The notes: generated by a model not told the origin, from the sequence alone. DNA of 64,000 nt from an uncultured Chloroflexia bacterium (GCA_963746075.1 CAVUZY010000004.1:663848-727847); one strand, 5' to 3'; shown: positions 1-53,466, counted from the stretch's first letter. Made by a program: numbers and translations.

Positions 1-225
1 AACGATCGTCCTGATCGGCTCCTCGGGCCGTATCTCCCAGCGCTGGAAGCGCCCGGTGGGCGCAGACTTCGCGTCCAGAAGCCGTCTGCGAAACCGATCG
101 AGAATGCTTGGAGCCGTAGCGTCTAGGAAATCGTGCGAGATTCCTCCAAACGAAGTGAGTTCCTCATCGCATTCGTTGAACGAAAAAACGAGACGCCCAT
201 CGGGAACGATAGGAGCTGCGGTCAT
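1..225 (-). CDS. hypothetical protein, 5' end only (continues beyond the window start); start ATG at 225-223 overlaps the upstream gene's stop as ATGA
   Basis: Reverse-complement reading from 225 gives MTAAPIVPDGRLVFSFNECDEELTSFGGISHDFLDATAPSILDRFRRRLLDAKSAPTGRFQRWEIRPEEPIRTIV with no stop to position 1. The ATGA overlap with the stop of 222..1325 suggests translational coupling. It is missing from the ORF track because it has no in-window stop. It lies in the low-GC block. Confidence 0.4.
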   Translation of the reverse strand, partial: MTAAPIVPDGRLVFSFNECDEELTSFGGISHDFLDATAPSILDRFRRRLLDAKSAPTGRFQRWEIRPEEPIRTIV

Positions 226-1325
226 AGAAGGTACAGATCTTGCTCGAGGGTTATGGCCCGTAGGAGTTCAGACTCTCGAACCGCAGTCTTCAGGCCCCAC
301 GCCTGGTCGGCATACGGCGGCCAGTCGTCGGGCTGCAGCCGAACGCAGTCGTCCGCTGGCACCAAGGATTTGCCGCGCGCGAAGTCCTCGCCGATAACCT
401 CTACGGGATTGGCGACACCGACCGCCACCAAAGGCGTCCCCAGCGTCGAGGAGGCAAAGTTCTGGACGATCACAGGGTCATCCGACATGCCGTCCGTGCT
501 TGTGAAAAGCACGGACTCGATTCCTGCGCGCCACCAGCGGCGCCCCAGAAATTCGGCCAGGATCCCTTCGTACGACGCCTCCGTGAACGCACCTTGCCGA
601 ACGGCCAAGGCGCCTTGAAGGGAATCTGGGTCGACGCGTAGCCGGGCGGCCAGTTGCATATCGTCCAAGAGAAAGCACGGATACGGAAGGATCCGATGAA
701 GCAGCCAGCGGACGAACGACAACCCGTGTGATCCGGCTGCCAGCTCGTGGATTGGAGCACGACATTCCTGAACGTCGCGCCAAGCGCGCTCCAACCAAGA
801 TTGGTCGCCGAGGCCCAGAAGAGCTTTAGCTTCGGTCTCGGATGCTGCCTCTGTCCAGATCTCGGGCAAGCGAGCGACCGCGCGGGCCAGGCTAGATATC
901 GCGATGACCAACTCTTCGACTGGCCGGCCAACCTTGGGGAATACCCACTCCAGGTCCAGTCCGCGGGCTAGAGCATGTTCCCGAATCTCCCGCGGGATCT
1001 CCTCACCGAGATCACCGATGTGGCCCGTGTGTATCGCGACGGCCAACGGCCTGGTTCGTGCTGTGAGCCGGCTCCGGGATCTCAATGCTGAGGCAAGCGC
1101 CACTCCGTTTGCGGGCAAGAAGGTCGGCTGCGTCTCCATTCCGACAAGCCAAGAGTCAAGCCGGTAGTCCACAAGCATGAGGTCCGCGGACTCAAGATCG
1201 GCCGTCGACACTTCGTCCGGGGCTCGGACCTCGGCTGCGCCATCGACGCCAAGGAGGGCCCCTAGGGTCTCAACTTGGTCGCGCTCGTCATCCACGACCA
1301 AGACTGCATAGTTCAAGTCCGCCAT
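222..1325 (-). CDS. response-regulator receiver (REC) domain protein with an uncharacterised ~250-aa C-terminal domain
   Basis: The N-terminus reads VLVVDDERDQVETLGALL...LMLVDYRLDS, a CheY-like acidic pocket with the phospho-acceptor Asp in LVDYRL. The C-terminal 250 aa has no motif I recognise. The start overlaps the upstream GHKL/HK gene by 13 bp and the stop overlaps the next gene as ATGA. Local GC is lower. Confidence 0.7.
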   Translation of the reverse strand: MADLNYAVLVVDDERDQVETLGALLGVDGAAEVRAPDEVSTADLESADLMLVDYRLDSWLVGMETQPTFLPANGVALASALRSRSRLTARTRPLAVAIHTGHIGDLGEEIPREIREHALARGLDLEWVFPKVGRPVEELVIAISSLARAVARLPEIWTEAASETEAKALLGLGDQSWLERAWRDVQECRAPIHELAAGSHGLSFVRWLLHRILPYPCFLLDDMQLAARLRVDPDSLQGALAVRQGAFTEASYEGILAEFLGRRWWRAGIESVLFTSTDGMSDDPVIVQNFASSTLGTPLVAVGVANPVEVIGEDFARGKSLVPADDCVRLQPDDWPPYADQAWGLKTAVRESELLRAITLEQDLYLL

Positions 1326-3532
1326 CGGACTTCGATTGCGGTCGACATACCCTGAGAGGGGGCCACAAACTCAATCGTTCCGCCGTAGTCGAGGACTATC
1401 CGTCTGCTGATGGGCAGCCCCATCCCCATTCCTTGCCCCAGAACCGGATCTGCGTCGTTTGAAGACGACTCGAACGGACGAAACCAACGCTCAGAGTCTT
1501 GAAGGTCGACTGCGTCGCCGCTGTTTTCGACCCGCAACACTAGCGGCTGGCCAGAGCCGCGGATGGAGATCCGGCCGCCGCTGCCCGCAGCTTTGACGGC
1601 GTTTGAGAGCAAATTCACGAGTAGAGCCACGAATTCTGCACGGAAGATCGGTGGCGTTGTCGCATCATCGGAAATGTCAGATGAGACGGTGATTCCTCGG
1701 GCACCGATCGATGGCGAAAGCAGGTCCATGACCGATTCGACGCGCTCTCGAACAGGCTGCCGCGACCTACGCCGCCGAGCATCCGTCGCCAGAACGTCAA
1801 CGAGGTATGACGCTTGGCGATCGAGGCCTTGACGCAGCGAGGTAACTGTTCGGTGAAGAGCCTGCAATTGACGGCGTACAGCGAGGTCTTCCGTCGTCCG
1901 AAGCGTAAGTGCATCGAGGGCCGCCTCTGCCGCCTCGGCAGCCGCTACCAATCCGCGAACCTCGTGAACGAATGCGGCCATTTGGGTGCCGACCGATGCT
2001 AGTACGCGGAGCATGCTCGTCTCCGTCATAAGGCCACTAAGTTGAGTGTCCGCCTCGATCAATAGTCCGCTCGCGCGCCCAACACCCCCCCGTGCCTCAA
2101 CGGTGGCGCCGCGCGACAGAAGCGATCCCACAGAGTCGACTTCTGCCCGCGCCGCATCAATGGTCCGCCGCAGTTTGGCCGCGGAAGTCAGCTCCGGCGC
2201 GGGTTTCTCAGGCTTCTCCGGTCGCGGCGCTGCTGAGCGCACTCGAACGGAGAGAGATACAGCGCGACGCATAGCCTCCGCTAAACCATGAAAGACAGCA
2301 TCGGGGACAAACCCCTCACGATTCACAAGCATTCGTAGGGAGCTCGAGCGATTCTCCGTCAGGAACACGGCTCCGAAGTACCCGGCATTCGGCAGATTTC
2401 GGAGCGCAGCATCTTCGTCCACGGCCTCCTCTTCCACGCCCTCACCGAACTCGAACACTCGGCTTCGGCGGGCGTAGTCAGAGTCAAGCGAAAGCCAGTC
2501 GTTGCTTCGTTCTCCGTACGGCAGCACACGAAAGCCTTCGAGGAACACGCGCACCCCTGCGACGCGTGATGCCCATTGCGCTATCGCCGCCGGTACGGCA
2601 AGCCGGCCTTCGCGGATCAGGACTCGCGCTTGGAATTGGGGTCCCACCCACTCCAAATCATTCTCGAATTCGATAATTCGCCGTTCGGCGCCAGGCCTTC
2701 GCTCGCTTGTCAGGACGGTCGGTGCAATCCCAACCGTGGTTGAGGTTCGAGTCGCGTCGACCTCTACTACCCAGCTACTGGCTTCGGCGACGGTTTGCCA
2801 GTAGTCCTCGCCCGGAGTCAAGTCGCCTTCAAGATGCACCGCGAACCCAGGGTCTGTGACGGAACTGTCCCTAACAGTTGGCTCGTCAAATAGGAGAGGC
2901 CGAGCAAGCACGGATCTTGGGAGCCCCTTCATCAGCACCGGCGGTGGCGAGAACGTCTCCACCTCTGCGAGGAATCGTGCGCGTTCGGCCCCTGTCCAGG
3001 CTTTTCTCAGACGTCGAAGCGTGATGGTCGTCCCGTGGTCTGAATTCGACTGGAGGGCGCGAACAGAGATTGAGTCCGATCCCGAAACGTCGTCAAGCGT
3101 TTCGAATCTCTCAATTGCGTCCCAGTCAATGGATGCAAGCACGCCGATGTCGTCCGCACGCCCTTCCAAGTCCGGCGTCGACTGAACCTCAAGAAGGGCA
3201 GCAAGCTTGTGGGCCGCCAAGCGACCTATTCCCTTCGCGCCCGTATATCGGCGCTCAAACTTCTTCGATCGCCTCGTGCCGCTTTCTTTGGTGCGCGAGG
3301 CGATTCGGAGAAACCCCTCTTCGAATTGCAGCTCCGTCATGCCAGTGCCGTCATCTGTGAGGCGCACGAATCCATGCCCCACATCCTGGAGCTGGTCCGC
3401 GTATACGACGACTCGGGTAGCGTCGGCGTCGTAGGCGTTCTTGATCAGCTCGACGAGCGCGGTGGAATCACGTCCGACCAAGAGCTCGCCGAGTTCGCGG
3501 AAGAGGTGCGTGTCGACTGAGAACTTGGGCAT
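1313..3532 (-). CDS. dual-ATPase sensor kinase-like protein: N-terminal GHKL/MORC-type (HATPase_c_3-like) ATPase plus C-terminal histidine-kinase core (HisKA-like H-box plus HATPase_c)
   Basis: N-terminal Bergerat motifs: ELIKNAYDADATRV (N-box), DDGTGM (G1), GAKGIGRL (G2). C-terminal H-box FVHEVRGLV, N-box LLVNLLSNAVKAAG, G1 VENSGDAVD, G2 GQGMGMGL. It is a single 739-aa ORF with no frameshift. GC here is ~58% against ~72% elsewhere. Confidence 0.7.
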   Translation of the reverse strand: MPKFSVDTHLFRELGELLVGRDSTALVELIKNAYDADATRVVVYADQLQDVGHGFVRLTDDGTGMTELQFEEGFLRIASRTKESGTRRSKKFERRYTGAKGIGRLAAHKLAALLEVQSTPDLEGRADDIGVLASIDWDAIERFETLDDVSGSDSISVRALQSNSDHGTTITLRRLRKAWTGAERARFLAEVETFSPPPVLMKGLPRSVLARPLLFDEPTVRDSSVTDPGFAVHLEGDLTPGEDYWQTVAEASSWVVEVDATRTSTTVGIAPTVLTSERRPGAERRIIEFENDLEWVGPQFQARVLIREGRLAVPAAIAQWASRVAGVRVFLEGFRVLPYGERSNDWLSLDSDYARRSRVFEFGEGVEEEAVDEDAALRNLPNAGYFGAVFLTENRSSSLRMLVNREGFVPDAVFHGLAEAMRRAVSLSVRVRSAAPRPEKPEKPAPELTSAAKLRRTIDAARAEVDSVGSLLSRGATVEARGGVGRASGLLIEADTQLSGLMTETSMLRVLASVGTQMAAFVHEVRGLVAAAEAAEAALDALTLRTTEDLAVRRQLQALHRTVTSLRQGLDRQASYLVDVLATDARRRRSRQPVRERVESVMDLLSPSIGARGITVSSDISDDATTPPIFRAEFVALLVNLLSNAVKAAGSGGRISIRGSGQPLVLRVENSGDAVDLQDSERWFRPFESSSNDADPVLGQGMGMGLPISRRIVLDYGGTIEFVAPSQGMSTAIEVRWRT

Positions 3533-3614
3533 GGGACCCCACGTTCGCGAAAGTCGAGTCCAAAGTCAACGAACCGGCCTCGCAGCCGGCTCGTTGCTTG
3601 TCTCTAACGTCGGG

Positions 3615-6600
3615 TCAGCTGCAGCCGCTCGTGGAGCCGCAGTTCAGGCACTTGTAGCAAGAGCCGTTGCGGACCATGATCGAGCCGCATTCGGCGCAGC
3701 TCGGGGCGTCCTCCTGGATCTTGAAGGCGACGTTCGCCTTGCCGAGCGACAGCGTCACCGTCGACCCGTTCCCATTCGACGCCTTCGCCGGCGCCGCGTG
3801 CCCATTGGTCGCAATGACCGCCAGCTCCCACTGGTCGCACCGACGTTGGCGTGGCCGCGGGCACGGCCGGAGAGCTGGCAGCGGCCGTCGCCGCGTCCTT
3901 CACAGCGGTAGCCGTGTCCACGGCGACGCTCGCCTTGGGAGCGTCACTTGGTTGCCGAGTGCCGTCCCGCGGTTCGGCCGTAGGCCGGTCGGGCTGAGTG
4001 GTCGATTGGACCTGAGCCGCAGCGAGAGGTCCGCCCGACCCGAAGCCCGAACCGGCCGAGAGGCCGAACGCGGGACTCTCGGAGCTCGAGGCACGCTCCT
4101 GCAGACCGAGCGCCGCCTTGTCGTCGGGACCGAGGAACCTGGACCCGAGCCACCGGAAGATGTAGTCGATGATCGACTTGGCGATCGGGATTTCCTGGTT
4201 GCCCGTGAACCCACTCGGCTCGAACCGAACGTGGGCGAACTTGTTCACGAGGTCGCGCAGCGGCACGCCGTACTGGAGCGCCACCGACACGGTCGTCGCG
4301 AAGCGAGTCCATCAGCCCCGAGACCGTCGAGCCTTCCTTCGCCATCTTCAGGAAGATCTCGCCGGGCTGGCCGTCCGGGTAGAGCCCGACGGTGATGTAG
4401 CCCTCGTGCCCCGCGATGTCGAACTTGTGGGTGACCGCGGTCCGCTCCGACGGGAGCCGCCGGCGATGGGGGAGGGCAGCCTCGGCCTGGGCCTTCTGAA
4501 GGTCCTTCTTCAGCTTCGCGACGACCTCGCTGTCGACGATGTCGCCGTCCTTCTTCTTGCCGGTCGAGAGCGGCTGCGAGCGCTTGGAGTTGTCGCGGTA
4601 GACCGCGATCGCCTTCAGGCCGAGCTTCCAGCCCTCGAGGTAGACCTTCTCGATCTCCTCGGCGGTGGCCGCCTCGGGCATGTTGACGGTCTTGCTGATC
4701 GCGCCCGAGATGAACGGCTGGATCGCGCCCATCATCCGGACGTGGCCCATGTAGTGGATCGAGCGCTCGCCGTTGACCGGCTTGAACGCGCAGTCGAAGA
4801 CCGACAGGTGCTGCGGCTTGACGTGCGGCGCGCCCTCGATCGTCTCGCGATCGTTGATGTAGGCGAGGATCTCCTCGACCTGCGTGGCGTCGTAGCCGAG
4901 CTTGCGGAGGGCTGACGGGACCGTCTGGTTGACGATCTTCAGGAAGCCCTCGCCGACGAGCTTCTTGTACTTGATCAGGGCGATGTCCGGCTCGACCCCG
5001 GTCGTGTCGCAATCCATCATGAACGCGATCGTGCCGGTCGGCGCCAGGACGGTGACCTGGGCGTTGCGGTAGCCGTGGACCTCGCCGAGCTCGAGCGCCT
5101 CGTCGTAGACGGCGCGCGCGGCCGCGATCATGTCCTTGGGCACGGCCTGGTCGGCCGGGATCTTGTAGGCCGCGTCGCGGTGCTTGTTGATCACCCGCAG
5201 GAACGGGGTCCGGTTCTCGTCATAGGCGAAGAACGGGCCGCCGTGATCGCGGGCGATGATGCTCGACTGCTTGTACGCCTCGCCGTGCATGATCGCGGTC
5301 AGGGCGGCGGCGTAGTTCCGGCCCTCGTCCGAGTCGTACGCGAGGCCACGGCTCATCAGCAGCGCGCCGAGGTTGGCGTAGCCGAGGCCGAGCGGGCGGA
5401 ACTTGTGCGAGTTCTCCTCGATCCGCGGCGTCGGGTACGACGCGTTGTCGACGAGGATCTCCTGGGCGGTGAGCGTCACCTTGGCGGCGAAGCGATACGA
5501 CTCGACGTCGAACTCGCCGTCCGCGTCGACGAACTTCATCAGGTTGAGCGACGCCAGGTTGCACGCGGTGTCGTTCAGGAACATGTACTCGGAGCACGGG
5601 TTCGACGCGTGGATCCGGTCCGTGTTCGCGGACGTGTGCCAGTCGTTGATCGTCGTGTCGTACTGGATGCCGGGGTCGCCGCAGACGTGGGCCGCCTCGG
5701 CCATCTTGCGGAACAGGTCGCGAGCCTTGTAGGTGTCCATCGGCTTGCCATCGACGACGGCGTGGGTGGTCCACTCCTTGTCGTCGACGACGGCCTGCAT
5801 GAACGCGTCGGTCACGCGGACGCTGTGGTTGGCGTTCTGGAAGGCGACCGAGCCGTAGGCCTCGCCGGTGAAGCTCGGGTCGTAGCCGGCCTCGATCAGG
5901 GCCCAGGCCTTCTTCTCCTCGTTGAGCTTCGAGTCGATGAAGTCGACGACGTCCGGATGGCCGGCATCGAGGATGACCATCTTGGCCGCGCGGCGGGTCT
6001 TGCCGCCCGACTTCACGACGCCGGCGAAGGCGTCGTAGCCGCGCATGAAGGAGACGGGGCCGCGAGGCGGTGCCGCCGCCGGTCATCTTCTCGCGCGAGC
6101 TCCGGATGGTGCTCAGGTTGCTGCCGGCGCCCGAGCCGAACTTGAACAGCATCGCCTCGGTCTTGGCGAGGTCCATGATCGAGGACATCGTGTCCTGGAC
6201 GCTGTTGATGAAGCAGGCGCTGCACTGCGGGCGCGCCTCGATGCCGACGTTGAACCAGACCGGCGAGTTGAAGCTCATCTTCTGGTGGACGAGAAGATGG
6301 GTCAGCTCGGCCTGGAACGTCTGGAGGTCCGCGTCGGTCGCGAAGTAGTGCTGCGTCTCGGCCCAGCCGGCGATCGTGAGGACGACCCGATCGATCAGCT
6401 GGCGGACGCTCGTCTCGCGCTCCGGCGTGCCGAGGTGGCCGCGGAAGTACTTGCTGACGACGACGTTCGTCGCGAGCTGCGACCAGAAGTTCGGGACCTC
6501 GACGTCCTTCTGCTCGAAGACGAGCTTGCCCGACTCGTTGCCGATGGCGGCGGTCCGCTGCTCCCAGGTGATCTCGTCGTAGGGATGGACGCCGGGCGTG

Positions 6601-6779
6601 GTCCAGCGGCGCTCGAAGGTGAGGCCGGTGGCCTGGTGGCCGTGACCGTCGGTTCCGTCGAAGCTGGCGCCGTACGGGCCGCTCAGCTGGCGGAGCGCGG
6701 TCGCCGCGGCCTTCTTCGCCTTGGTCGTCCCTGTGTCGCGGTCCATCACCGGGGTCGCGTCGCCGCTCTGTCGGGCCAT
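3615..6779 (-). CDS. nrdJ: vitamin B12-dependent (class II) ribonucleotide reductase NrdJ, reading frame broken by at least 3 single-base frameshifts (likely assembly indels)
   Basis: The N-terminal piece (ORF 5220..6779) reads GLTFERRWTTPGVHPYDEITWEQR...FGSGAGSNLSTIRSSREKMTGGG and then turns to nonsense. The middle piece (ORF 3944..6046) reads MRGYDAFAGVVKSGGKTRRAAKMVILDAGHPDVVDF...NPCSEYMFLNDTACNLASLNL...MAKEGSTVSGLMDS. The third piece (ORF 3604..4290) reads SVALQYGVPLRDLVNKFAHVRFEPSGFTG. The true C-terminus in a third frame ends SCAECGSIMVRNGSCYKCLNCGSTSGCS with stop TGA at 3615-3617, a typical NrdJ zinc-ribbon tail. Confidence 0.85.
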
Positions 6780-7025
6780 CGTGTCGGTTCCTCCACCGTG
6801 TCACCGAGCGGTCCGGGTTCTCCGTCCGGATCGCTCGTTCTCAGGCCGCTTGCCCCGCCGCTGCGGTAGCTGCGACCACCTCCCTGTTGCGATCGCTTCG
6901 GAGGGCCGTTCCTGGGTCCATCGAGGCCGGCGGGCATGGCCGGCGGACGGTCCTGAGGGGCGGCGCGGAGCGATCAGCGCGAGGCTCCAGCGTACGCCTG
7001 GGGGAGGGGGCAGTCAAGCCCCAAA

Positions 7026-7073
7026 CCACAAGATGTAGTGGTTGCTCGCTCGTGCGCACCGCAACATGTGGTG
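7026..7073 (-). promoter_or_regulatory. two NrdR-box-like imperfect palindromes in the nrdJ upstream region, centres ~31.5 bp apart
   Basis: ccacaagatgtagtgg (7026-7041) and caccgcaacatgtggtg (7057-7073). On the nrdJ strand these read ccACtAcATcTtGtgg and caccAcATgTtGcggtg, compared with the NrdR consensus acaCwAtATaTwGtgt. They sit 250-300 bp upstream of the nrdJ start. Confidence 0.4.
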
Positions 7074-7121
7074 ACGAGCGTCGATTGCCGTCATCCACGC
7101 TCAGTGCACGATCGGGGGGTG

Positions 7122-7197
7122 GGTTGCCCACGGTGGCGGGGTGGTTGTCCACGGTCGTTGGGTAGGTTGTCCACCGGCTCGGTGGCGGTTGTCCACG
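7122..7197. repeat. four direct repeats of GGTTG(C/T)CCAC at 21-23 bp spacing (iteron or operator-like array)
   Basis: ggttgcccac 7122-7131, ggttgtccac 7143-7152, ggttgtccac 7165-7174, ggttgtccac 7188-7197. The array lies in the non-coding region between nrdJ and the XRE-family regulator gene. Confidence 0.6.
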
Positions 7198-7204
7198 CCA
7201 TGAT

Positions 7205-7224
7205 AACCGAACATGTGTTCGGTT
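7205..7224. promoter_or_regulatory. perfect 8-bp inverted repeat AACCGAAC-ATGT-GTTCGGTT (candidate dimeric-regulator operator)
   Basis: Read directly: aaccgaac atgt gttcggtt. It sits 7 bp after the last GGTTGTCCAC repeat and ~350 bp upstream of the HTH regulator gene. Confidence 0.5.
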
Positions 7225-7273
7225 GCGGCGCTGCGGCCAGGGCCGCTGCCCGAGGCAACCGGCCAGGCAGTCA

Positions 7274-7540
7274 CCCCGGGACTCGGCGGCGCAGTCGCGC
7301 GCGGGGATCGCGCCAATACGCCGCCGGCGCCGCTCGGGACCGCGCCACGCAGTCCCCAGGTGAATGCCTGGCCGGATCGTGTCGCCGAGCGGGCGCGGCG
7401 CCGGCTCCGAGCCTGTCCAACTGGCCACATCGTCCCCCCGGGACTCCGTGGCGCGGTCGCGTGCGCGCCCAGGGACGAGAGCGACGCCGATGGAGCGTGC
7501 GACCGCGCCCCGCAGTCCTCGCCCGCGTGAATGGCCAGAT
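7274..7540. repeat. two degenerate ~95-105 bp direct repeats, ~70% identical, 173 bp apart
   Basis: Copy 1 (7274-7376) and copy 2 (7447-7540) both begin ccccgggactc(g/c)g(c/t)ggcgc(a/g)gtcgcg(c/t)gcg and share gaccgcgcc(a/c)cgcagtcc and gtgaatg(c)c. They lie in the non-coding leader of the XRE regulator gene. Confidence 0.5.
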
Positions 7541-7578
7541 ATGCCCGGGTGAAGCGGCGTGGTCCAGGCTTCTGGCCC

Positions 7579-8289
7579 ATGGACGATCAGCGACTCGGCG
7601 CAGTGATCCGTCGCGTTCGCCTCCGGGCCGGTCGCACCCAGGCCGGCGTCGCTCAGGCAGCGGGCGTGTCGCAGTCGACGGTGTCGAGGGTCGAGCGCGG
7701 GCATCTCGGTCCGCTCCAGCTCGAGACGATCCGCTCCATCGGCGCTGCGGTGGAGGTCCGCATCGACCTGATTCCTCGATGGCGCGGCGCCGATCTCGAT
7801 CGCCTGCTCGGTGCGGCCCACGCTGCACTGCACCGCTCGGTGGCTGAGTCCCTAGCGGGACACCGCGATTGGACGTTCCGGCCGGAGGTCTCGTTCTCGA
7901 TCTGGGGCGAACGCGGCATCATCGACATCCTCGCCTGGCACGCCAAGCGCAAGGTGCTGCTCGTGATCGAACTCAAGACCGAGGTCGTCGACCTGAACGA
8001 GCTGCTCGGCACGCTCGACCGGAAGGTTCGGCTCGGACCGGAGATCGCGCGAGCACAGGGATGGGCCGTGCCGCCCGGTGCGCGTGTCTCGGCCTGGGTG
8101 ATCGTCAGCGACGGACGGACGAACCGACGACGGATCCATGCCCACGCGGCCATGATCCGCGCCGCCCTGCCGGACGACGGCCGAGCCATTGCGGGTTGGC
8201 TGGGGCGACCCCGACGGAACCTGCGCTGCCTGAGCTTCTGGTCAGCGATGCCGCCCCGGCATCAGCGGCCAGGTCGTACGCGGGCGTAG
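7579..8289 (+). CDS. XRE-family helix-turn-helix transcriptional regulator with a C-terminal uncharacterised domain
   Basis: HTH segment RLRAGRTQAGVAQAAGVSQSTVSRVERG. ORF 7531..8289; the probable start is MDDQRLG at 7579. The C-terminal domain (WTFRPEVSFSIWGERGIIDILAWHAKRKVLLVIELKTEVVDLNELLGTLDRK) is unrecognised. Confidence 0.6.
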   Translation: MDDQRLGAVIRRVRLRAGRTQAGVAQAAGVSQSTVSRVERGHLGPLQLETIRSIGAAVEVRIDLIPRWRGADLDRLLGAAHAALHRSVAESLAGHRDWTFRPEVSFSIWGERGIIDILAWHAKRKVLLVIELKTEVVDLNELLGTLDRKVRLGPEIARAQGWAVPPGARVSAWVIVSDGRTNRRRIHAHAAMIRAALPDDGRAIAGWLGRPRRNLRCLSFWSAMPPRHQRPGRTRA

Positions 8290-8433
8290 GCCGGGATCCC
8301 GAGTCGACCACGCTCACGATTGGGCCCAGCAGTCCCCGGGAGGGTCGGTGGCCTGGTTGCCATGGACGCCGGGAGCGAGGTCGCGGCGGGACCGACCGCC
8401 GCCGCGATCGAGGAACGCCGGGACCGCCGCGCT

Positions 8434-9386
8434 ACAGCCCGCTGTACGAGTGCAGCCCGTTGAACCAGAGCGAGCCGGAGTAGGTGACGAGCACCATCCC
8501 GAACGCCACGACCAGGAGCAGCGCCGCCGGCCGGCCCGCCCACGACTTCTGGTTGCGAGCGTGGAGGTAGACCGCGTAGGACAGCCAGGTGATCAGCGCC
8601 GCCGTCTCCTTCGGGATCCCAGCCCCAGTAGCGCGACCAGGCGATCGAGGCCCACCACGAGCCGAGGATGATCATCGTCGCGAAGATCGGGAAGCCGATG
8701 ATCACCGACCGGTAGGCCACCTCGTCCAGGACCTTGTGGCCGGGCAGCCAGGCGAAGCGGTCCTCGGTGCCCTGGATCAGGAACGCGACCCCGGCCGCGA
8801 AGCTCGTCGCGAAGATCCCGTAGCTGAGCACCGCCAGCCCGACATGGATCGTGATCAGCGGCGGGTTCTGGAGGGCCGGCACGAGCTGGCTGATCTGCGA
8901 CGGCAGGCTCGCGGCGTAGAGCAGCAGGGCCAGCGCCACGCCGGTCGGGATGAAGCCGATCGAGCGGATCGGGTAGCGCCGCGACAGCCACAGGTAGCCG
9001 CCGACGATCGACGTCGCGAAGGCGACGGTGAACTCGAACATGTTGCCCCACGGCCCGCGCCCGACCACGAGCCCGCGCGCCAGGAGATAGCCGGCCAGCG
9101 AGGCAAACCCGACCAGCGCGATCACCCCGGCTGCCCGGCCGAGCGGCGTCGGGGCCAGCCCGAGCGGGGTGGCGGCCGGGTCAGCGCCGGCGGAGGCAAG
9201 GCGGGCGTCGGCGAACGAGCCGCTGACCGCGCCGGCCCAGGCCGGCGCCGCGTTCGATCGGTTGAAGGCAAGGGCCAGCGGCCGCCGACCGTTGGCCAGG
9301 AGGACCGCGTGCCCGACATGGGCGGCGAACGCGATCGCGATCGCGACGACGCCGATCGGGAAGAGGATGGTGGCGATGACGTTCAT
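8434..9386 (-). CDS. ccsA: cytochrome c-type biogenesis protein CcsA/ResC (heme exporter); one single-base frameshift near 8594
   Basis: Polytopic membrane protein ending ...SRYWGWDP in the ORF frame. It then continues as KETAALITWLSYAVYLHARNQKSWAGRPAALLLVVAFGMVLVTYSGSLWFNGLHSYSGL* in the +1 frame, with the junction at the C run in gatcccgaagg. This gives the WGWDPKET tryptophan-rich WWD signature. Confidence 0.8.
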
Positions 9387-53390: not shown

Positions 53391-53466
53391 TGGGGTGGCC
53401 TACGGGGGTCGAACCCGTAACCGCTGGAGCCACAATCCAGTGCTCTACCATTGAGCTAAGGCCACC
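53391..53466 (-). tRNA. tRNA-His (anticodon GTG) with genomically encoded G-1 and 3' CCA
   Basis: On the minus strand: G GTGGCCT TA GCTCAATGGTAGAGC A CTGGA TTGTGGC TCCAG CGGTT ACGGG TTCGACC CCCGT AGGCCAC C CCA. The cloverleaf pairs correctly, the anticodon loop is UUGUGGC, and G-1 pairs with discriminator C73. Confidence 0.85.

Follow-up and report, generated by a model that had tools for sequence, protein, structure and literature searches.

What does a cytoplasmic protein do that joins a MORC-type ATPase to a histidine-kinase core, and what part is played by the genes that travel with it? The question is raised by positions 1-3532 of a 64,000-nucleotide stretch of DNA from an uncultured Chloroflexia bacterium (GCA_963746075.1 CAVUZY010000004.1:663848-727847; this whole stretch is hereafter the window), where open reading frame (ORF) calling revealed three overlapping minus-strand ORFs, termed here g1, g2 and g3, downstream of nrdJ. 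Comparison with related loci shows that the triad belongs to a cassette of four genes and ~5.6 kb, the fourth gene in the relatives encoding a DNA methyltransferase, and that the cassette is horizontally mobile. We give about an even chance to the reading that it constitutes a restriction-modification (R-M)-like phage or plasmid defence system signalling by phosphotransfer, each single step of that reading being considerably less sure.

The operon and the methyltransferase partner in its relatives

Within the window, the g1 and g2 ORFs share 13 bp (ATGGCGGACTTGA), and g2 meets g3 at an ATGA. These overlapping junctions bear out the single, tightly coupled operon proposed in a preliminary description of this DNA, whose account of three minus-strand genes with a 13-bp overlap and then ATGA agrees with both the ORF coordinates and the junction sequence; the g1 motifs that it quoted (ELIKNAYDADATRV, DDGTGM, GAKGIGRL and FVHEVRG) were all located as well. 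It was also right that gene 3 is truncated, as the window edge cuts off most of g3 and leaves only 75 codons within the window. The limit to three genes did not survive comparison: relatives show a four-gene cassette, of which the methyltransferase gene would here lie wholly beyond the window edge. At the other end of the operon, the nrdJ stop codon occupies positions 3615-3617. In the spacer between this codon and g1, the signal scan detected no promoter-like or convincing terminator-like site, and no Rfam family matched in window 1-9000, spacer included.

The comparison covered 67 related loci (cited below by L numbers), 62 of them from species-representative genomes, together with two plasmids and several metagenome contigs. 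In essentially all of these loci g1, g2 and g3 are co-linear and tightly packed. Moreover, an Eco57I/TaqI-type N6-adenine DNA methyltransferase adjoins the triad in 58 of the 67 loci, located downstream in 34, upstream in 16 and on the opposite strand in 8. About 65 of the loci could be assessed for the methylase; of the nine lacking it, one is interrupted where its contig stops, and another consists of an orphan g2. The cassette methylases match the Pfam models Eco57I and M_Eco57I_C, in some cases also N6_Mtase, and score as PADLOC MTase_II.

The closest relatives, L002 and L065, share the order nrdJ-g1-g2-g3-methylase at the same site as in the window, with g3 and the methylase gene overlapping by 4 bp and DUF1697 located beyond the methylase. 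The L002 proteins are 63% (g1) and 55% (g2) identical to those of the window, and the L002 methylase contains an NPPY motif. By far the most likely content of the DNA beyond window position 1 would be the remaining ~180 codons of g3 and a ~1.5-kb methylase gene. In L065, a CAP12/PCTIR-type TIR gene (L065:12455-13276) is inserted between the methylase and DUF1697, and the arrangement suggests a small hot spot for defence genes downstream of nrdJ in this lineage.

Between the "downstream" methylases and those of the "upstream" and "opposite-strand" classes, identity is only ~26%, compared with ~39% within the downstream class, whereas g2 is ~35% identical both within and between the methylase-position classes. 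Because the methylases diverge between classes and g2 does not, the triad has kept working with at least two methylase lineages. Two unusual arrangements were observed among the relatives. In a Longimicrobiales metagenome-assembled genome (MAG), an orphan g2 homologue (L046:9956-11098) has no g1, g3 or methylase nearby, and one Haliangium MAG carries two identical-looking triads on different contigs (L052 and L053), with no Eco57I-type methylase within 10 kb.

The composition of the operon differs from that of its host. The GC content of 1-3532 is 61.1%, versus 72.4% for the remaining window, and this segment is the lowest 3.5-kb stretch of the 64 kb, ~4 standard deviations under the mean. The preliminary description had noted a GC shift that ends at the 3' end of nrdJ and had taken it for a sign of foreign origin, both of which stand; its estimate of ~58% for the island was about three points too low. 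Third-position GC (GC3) reveals the foreign origin more clearly than total GC does. The GC3 values of g1, g2 and g3 are 0.645, 0.70 and 0.63, respectively, against a mean of 0.88 over 37 host-type ORFs, a deficit of ~0.2-0.25. The total GC of nrdJ is 67%, yet its GC3 of 0.90 is host-like, which places the compositional break, at 250-bp resolution, at the nrdJ 3' end. Both GC and GC3 are below the host in the window, L002, L065 and L001, and the cassettes of L002 and L065 lie 8-9 GC points under their flanks.

The family is present in at least 12 phyla: Acidobacteriota, Chloroflexota, Planctomycetota, Armatimonadota, Latescibacterota and Gemmatimonadota, as well as Myxococcota, Verrucomicrobiota, Poribacteria, Binatia, Pseudomonadota and Actinomycetota. 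Two plasmids carry cassettes, a mobilizable one of Clavibacter and one of Rhizobium. Cultured bacteria with a complete cassette include Clavibacter californiensis (pCCa), Rhizobium sp. TH2 (pTH2c), Variovorax sp. DXTD-1, Kribbella sp. NPDC056861, Pseudonocardia xinjiangensis and Streptomyces parvus JCM 4069. Two integrases and FtsK neighbour the cassette in L071, and Tn7-like tnsABC neighbour it in L069. In L070 (827-20581) the cassette lies within a dense defence island that also encodes a 1249-aa HTH-SNF2/helicase-NOV_C protein, two AAA_15/AAA_21 ATPases, a DUF1156 methylase-like protein of 1093 aa and a 1114-aa unknown protein. In L068 a neighbouring GIY-YIG protein, which we regard as island context only, matches PDC-S14 of PADLOC. 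A DUF5131/TcmP-like pair in L032 was considered as a methylase replacement and rejected, as PADLOC identifies it as an independent candidate system (PDC-M30/M41) and hence as island context only.

These neighbourhoods, examined with Pfam and PADLOC, show that relatives often adjoin known or candidate defence genes. The earlier proposal of a mobile signalling or defence module accordingly holds as regards mobility and surroundings (plasmids, integrases, Tn7-like genes, and TIR, PDC-S14, PDC-M30/M41 and DUF1156 neighbours); its framing as Detocs, considered below, does not. As to the direct repeats and the tRNA for which it had suggested looking, no convincing flanking direct repeats (integration scars) are present in L065, and the sole tRNA gene in the window, tRNA-His (GTG) at 53391-53465 on the minus strand, is not the integration site for the island because it is ~50 kb away.

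Collectively, distribution and composition effectively refute an ordinary chromosomal housekeeping two-component system of unusual composition. Such a system would fit the nrdJ-adjacent position that two relatives share. It would not explain the GC3 deficit of the operon here and the low GC of the relatives' cassettes, the patchy occurrence with differing neighbours and plasmid copies, or the lack of any known sensor or output domain. Nor does it accord with the RefSeq annotation, which labels the three cassette proteins only "ATP-binding protein" or "hypothetical protein."

Architecture of g1, g2 and the third slot

As predicted from its sequence, g1 is a soluble paraMORC-like GHKL ATPase fused to a histidine-kinase core. 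Pfam matches HATPase_c_3 in its N-terminal part (E 1.8e-17) and HATPase_c in its C-terminal part (E 1.8e-20), the same pairing that is present in 10 g1 homologues. In searches against Protein Data Bank (PDB) sequences, the N terminus matched MORC2 (E 3e-5) and the C terminus the kinases KdpD, ThkA, KinB and PhoQ. Both halves of the preliminary assignment are thus upheld: the MORC/HATPase_c_3 module occupies the usual sensor position of a kinase, and the C-terminal part is a histidine-kinase core with a conserved His523.

g1 is full length relative to 49 homologues, and conservation was assessed in the alignment of all 50 sequences with a threshold of at least 95%. This level is reached by the ATP-binding residues of the N-terminal module (Table 1) and by those of the C-terminal module, namely N640/N644 of the N box, F684, and G699-G705 of the G2 box, so that both ATP-binding modules are intact. 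It is also reached by His523, the predicted DHp phospho-acceptor, which is followed by the acidic residue E524. No HisKA or HEF_HK match was obtained for g1 in Pfam. The middle region contains two motifs conserved at the same level, GxRVxxEGFRVxPYG...DWL and LVNREGF, and is matched by no Pfam model; it is possibly the S5/transducer-like part of a paraMORC. Up to residue ~356-420, g1 is 24-31% identical to plasmid-borne HATPase_c_3 kinases. An RRRR run at residues 586-589 (window 1766-1777), between the DHp and catalytic domains, is also at least 95% conserved family-wide.

REase_II is the sole PADLOC model that matches g1, and it covers only the N-terminal GHKL part. Likewise, g1 residues 4-184 align to NF050001 (BbrUII/HgiDII) with 81.8 bits versus a cut-off of 550, a score so far under the cut-off that g1 is judged not to be a member of that family.

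g2 was originally described as a receiver fused to a domain with no recognisable motif, and this description is sustained. Its receiver scores only E 0.05 against Pfam Response_reg. However divergent, it is a catalytically complete receiver and not a pseudo-receiver, because D12, D13, D53 and K131 are invariant among homologues and the β-4 Thr/Ser is retained. No Pfam, NCBIfam or PADLOC family matches g2, fold searches returned overwhelmingly receiver-domain matches, and a profile of 50 sequences made from the C-terminal half gave no match against PDB sequences. In the structural model, residues 199-262 form a helix, strand, helix, helix and hairpin, a topology from which we infer a winged-helix-like element; this stretch also aligns weakly (hhalign E 3e-4, probability 40%) with the receiver-like 355-aa partner of a Paraburkholderia plasmid cassette. 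The PDDW motif of the α/β domain that follows was considered as a PD-(D/E)xK nuclease motif and rejected, as a conserved (D/E)xK is absent downstream. At least 415 g2 homologues were collected, and a profile search of 1.84 billion representative proteins returned 734 clusters of the family at E<=1e-3, nearly all with lengths of 340-400 aa. By these searches the g2 family is of modest size and consistent architecture, and g2 serves as its marker protein.

Over the fragment, g3 shares 49% identity with the N terminus of a 255-aa protein from the closest relative, and the family of that protein gave no match to a known family. In an actinobacterial subclade (L050, L051, L056, L057, L059, L061 and the Clavibacter plasmid), g3 is replaced after g2 by an unrelated protein of ~200 aa. 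The invariant motifs of the latter, D-TGPL, GEAE and DxDA..VA, stand in the order of a PIN domain, and the sole PDB sequence match of its profile is a PIN protein, with a nonsignificant E of 0.95. We take a PIN-like identity for this protein as a lead only; should it be correct, slot 3 would be an exchangeable effector position. Together, the divergence of the methylases and the swap in slot 3 are patterns typical of defence cassettes.

Table 1. Positions of cassette features in the window and of the actinobacterial slot-3 genes
Feature	Position	Strand	Details and basis
g1	1313..3532	-	739 aa; ORF, Pfam and PDB sequence matches
g1 HATPase_c_3 (residues 24-143), MORC/MutL-type Bergerat fold	3104..3463	-	Pfam; E28, N32, D60-G62-G64, G98-G103
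g1 middle region (residues ~144-500)	2033..3103	-	Conserved motifs, then variable linker
g1 His523 (FVHEVRG), predicted DHp phospho-acceptor	1964..1966	-	Codon checked; conservation
g1 HATPase_c (residues 636-731), kinase catalytic domain	1340..1627	-	Pfam and conservation
g2	222..1325	-	367 aa; ORF
g2 receiver (REC; residues ~7-135)	921..1307	-	D12, D13, D53 (codon 1167-1169), T100, K131
g2 winged-helix-like element, predicted (residues 199-262)	540..731	-	HGLxFxRWLLHRILPYPCFL...LAARLR...Y.G; secondary structure of the model
g2 α/β C-terminal domain (residues 263-367)	225..539	-	RWWR and PDDWPPYAD motifs
g3	1..225	-	First 75 codons; ~255-aa protein of unknown fold, cut at window edge
Spacer	3533..3614	.	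82 bp, nrdJ stop to g1 start; right-hand limit of the low-GC segment
Slot-3 gene	L050:11197-11832
Slot-3 gene	L051:11144-11869
Slot-3 gene	L056:11209-11838
Slot-3 gene	L057:11152-11826
Slot-3 gene	L059:11245-11883
Slot-3 gene	L061:11064-11759
Slot-3 gene	L067:10100-10714

The adjacent nrdJ gene (B12-dependent ribonucleotide reductase; 3615-6779, minus strand) is split over several reading frames. At least two of the breaks are single extra C residues after CTCG, located at GGGTAS|GPVSFMRGYDAFAG (~6060) and GLMDS|FATTVSVALQYG (~4300), and a third frame change is found near 4490. Systematic errors of long-read basecalling or assembly seem a better explanation for these breaks than a true pseudogene. 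Neither g1 nor g2 is shortened compared with its homologues; fine details such as the 13-bp overlap are subject to the same error caveat. Farther along, a 252-aa ORF (7531-8289, plus strand) has an N-terminal Xre-type helix-turn-helix (HTH) domain (HTH_31, E 1e-10), and its C terminus shows faint PDDEXK-nuclease-like matches (YhcG_C, E 0.07) with a D...ELK pattern.

Relation to known systems and possible function

The preliminary description did not recognise the domain combination of g1. The combination has in fact been published: Bellieny-Rabelo, Pretorius & Moleleki (2021), in a purely computational study, described soluble kinases composed of HATPase_c_3, HEF_HK and HATPase_c with receiver-like partners (PMC8011034). 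The "group 1" architecture, HATPase_c_3 + DHp + HATPase_c, accounted for 174 of their 222 sequences, and 91.6% of the kinases adjoin receiver-like Response_reg_2 proteins (PMC8011034). The kinase/receiver modules are enriched beside type II R-M genes, especially C5 methylases, and the kinases were derived from paraMORCs, with HATPase_c_3 suggested to stand at the sensor position (PMC8011034). Thus, the idea that the MORC-like ATPase acts as the sensor agrees with the place of this module in g1, but it is not new.

The present cassette resembles these modules closely. g1 is a soluble kinase with an N-terminal HATPase_c_3 domain, a His-Glu DHp and a C-terminal HATPase_c domain, and its neighbour g2 is receiver-like, keeps the DD, D, T and K residues, has long insertions in its loops and lacks a known output domain. 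The tight linkage to a DNA methyltransferase, seen in 58 of the relatives' loci, and the sporadic distribution are shared too. There are nevertheless differences between them. The cassette methylase is of the Eco57I/TaqI-type N6-adenine class and not of the predominant C5 class, and the operon contains a conserved third gene, g3. In addition, PF19191 (HEF_HK) matched neither g1 (E<=1) nor 10 g1 homologues (E<=0.1), and PF19192 (Response_reg_2) did not match g2, with one of 32 homologues reaching E 0.07.

Two plasmid-borne modules help to place the cassette among these kinases. The Paraburkholderia plasmid locus (L073:4316-9948), a distant intermediate with five genes, encodes a small HTH regulator, an Eco57I-type methylase, a kinase with a subthreshold score against HEF_HK (E 0.008), the 355-aa receiver-like protein and a 225-aa protein. 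An FHAQ motif in the last recalls the FHxQ that is conserved in g3; the two proteins do not align significantly. The Campylobacter coli plasmid pTet (L074:4974-9404) carries a related HATPase_c_3/HATPase_c kinase beside a receiver protein of 331 aa, with a dcm methylase gene oriented convergently. Modules of this type occur on 26 other Campylobacter plasmids, and pTet-type plasmids are conjugative. The N-terminal half of g1, whose 24-31% identity is to plasmid kinases broadly of the type published in 2021, matches the pTet kinase with E 7e-18. Because neither the kinase nor the receiver of this Campylobacter pair reaches PF19191 or PF19192 at E<=0.01, the two Pfam models cover only part of a larger superfamily.

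ParaMORCs were identified as R-M components from gene context by Iyer, Abhiman & Aravind in 2008 (PMC2292703). VcSduA, a paraMORC3-nuclease fusion of Shedu type I-D, is an experimentally shown anti-phage protein (PMC12137116). The MORC/paraMORC GHKL module of such proteins is believed to act as the gate of an output located C-terminally. As in the paraMORCs of R-M systems, the N-terminal Bergerat-fold ATPase of g1 has intact motifs and occurs in an R-M or defence context. However, the output of g1 is a histidine-kinase core instead of a nuclease, TIR or helicase partner. Of the usual operon partners, the methylase is present in the cassette relatives, and a helicase or nuclease partner is absent. 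At the position of the S5 domain of paraMORCs, g1 contains its conserved but unmatched middle region.

Detocs (DtcABC), in which a His-Asp relay drives defence (Rousset et al. 2023; bioRxiv 10.1101/2023.01.24.525353), was the system to which the preliminary description likened the locus. The two share a cytoplasmic kinase-to-receiver relay with conserved His and Asp residues and a mobile operon in which one component is swapped. If the cassette worked like Detocs, by abortive infection, the kinase would sense a phage protein, phospho-g2 or g3 would be a toxic effector and the methylase would be merely an island neighbour. The union of kinase, receiver protein and extra protein in one operon, the mobile context and the loci from which the methylase is missing are all in keeping with such a mechanism, the principle of which Detocs demonstrates. 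Yet the components differ one by one. Unlike DtcA, g1 has no TPR match and begins with HATPase_c_3, a DNA-clamp-type ATPase typical of R-M systems, at the sensor position; no stand-alone buffer receiver corresponding to DtcB is present in the window or the 67 related loci; and, unlike DtcC, g2 has a C-terminal half with no Pfam, NCBIfam, PADLOC or PDB-sequence match, no PNP, TIR or other known toxic domain being present in the cassette. No PADLOC model for Detocs matched, and the description as a Detocs-type variant has to be abandoned. Moreover, the methylase adjoins the triad in 58 of the ~65 evaluable loci and in three gene orders, far above island co-occurrence. A Detocs-like mechanism is thus quite improbable, and, because the constant partner is an Eco57I-type methyltransferase, the best analogy moves from Detocs to R-M-like systems.

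Within that group the correspondence is partial. As in classical type II R-M, a methyltransferase with a catalytic motif and a target-recognition domain is present, in the cassette relatives only; unlike in classical type II R-M, no recognisable restriction endonuclease is found in g1, g2 or g3. BREX type 2 (Pgl) combines the PglW kinase with the PglX methylase. MADS comprises 8 genes over ~22 kb (Maestri et al.; bioRxiv 10.1101/2023.03.30.534895). The cassette shares with both an adenine methylase of the Eco57I family or related to it, a kinase and proteins of unknown role, with no obvious nuclease, and its methylases have secondary PADLOC matches to mad2. However, MADS and BREX type 2 use Ser/Thr-type kinases and extend over 6-8 genes and ~14-22 kb, with PglZ, ATPase or specificity subunits, whereas the cassette has four genes in ~5.6 kb, a His-Asp relay and a MORC-like ATPase. 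Identification as MADS or a Tiamat-type system was dropped in view of the size and gene number of MADS and the single PADLOC match of g1.

How might such a cassette function in defence? The methylase would mark host DNA. g1 could dimerise through its DHp domain and, on ATP binding, through its MORC-like heads and thereby sample DNA, the ATP-driven clamp acting as a cytoplasmic sensor of DNA state, that is, of unmodified or invading DNA. Engagement of such DNA would switch on autophosphorylation at His523, from which the phosphoryl group would be transferred to Asp53 of g2. Phospho-g2, alone or with g3, may then bind DNA via its winged-helix part and execute or license restriction, with the slot-3 protein as a likely effector or adaptor. 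Taken as a whole, this would be a new class of methylation-based immunity in which a MORC-like DNA clamp driven by ATP senses, a His-to-Asp phosphorelay licenses restriction, the g2 C terminus and g3 adopt effector or reader folds lacking known relatives, and slot 3 can be exchanged for other effectors, such as a PIN-like protein in actinobacteria. Two-component signalling would then, for the first time, be seen to run an R-M-type system. We offer this complete form tentatively and consider it somewhat doubtful.

Several observations weigh against a role in defence. The methylase gene is not visible in the window itself, and at ~7 evaluable loci the 10 kb around the triad lack an Eco57I-type methylase. 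No g2 homologue was found in 50,697 phage records. A winged helix in g2 would be just as much expected of an ordinary transcription factor. Finally, because no nuclease or other effector family or fold was found in g1, g2 or g3, the defence mechanism can only be inferred.

Some of these points would instead suit a regulatory two-component system. In it, g1 would respond to a cue inside the cell, such as nucleotide or DNA state, and phospho-g2 would be a winged-helix transcription factor tuning expression of the adjacent methylase, with no restriction by the system itself. Such a system could serve as an epigenetic switch or set the timing of methylation after transfer, which is essentially the speculation of the 2021 authors, who proposed signalling that controls R-M systems (PMC8011034). 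The winged-helix-like topology of g2 and the failure to detect a nuclease anywhere in the cassette are consistent with it, as is the small HTH regulator upstream of the methylase in the distant Paraburkholderia cassette. However, regulation of this kind leaves unexplained a strictly conserved third protein, a MORC-type ATPase with fully conserved motifs, the swap of the slot-3 gene and the survival of the triad at some loci where no methylase is present. Plasmids, integrative elements and defence islands would in addition be carrying an odd cargo, namely an orphan methylase and a regulator made of three proteins. We regard a purely regulatory role, the main rival to defence, as unlikely.

Significance of the family

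The domain architecture described here was already published in silico in 2021; what this branch adds is g3 and the N6-adenine methylase, and it escapes the Pfam models of that work. Its value is that of a well-delimited candidate and not of a discovery. g2 defines several hundred clusters at 50% identity, and current defence-finding pipelines are blind to the family because it has no Pfam, NCBIfam or PADLOC model.

If the proposed R-M-like function is correct, the cassette would join two-component phosphotransfer with methylation-based discrimination of self from non-self, which are normally separate. It would also provide a compact, ~5.6-kb four-gene system in which to ask what prokaryotic MORC-type ATPases sense, a question that is also open for the eukaryotic MORCs.

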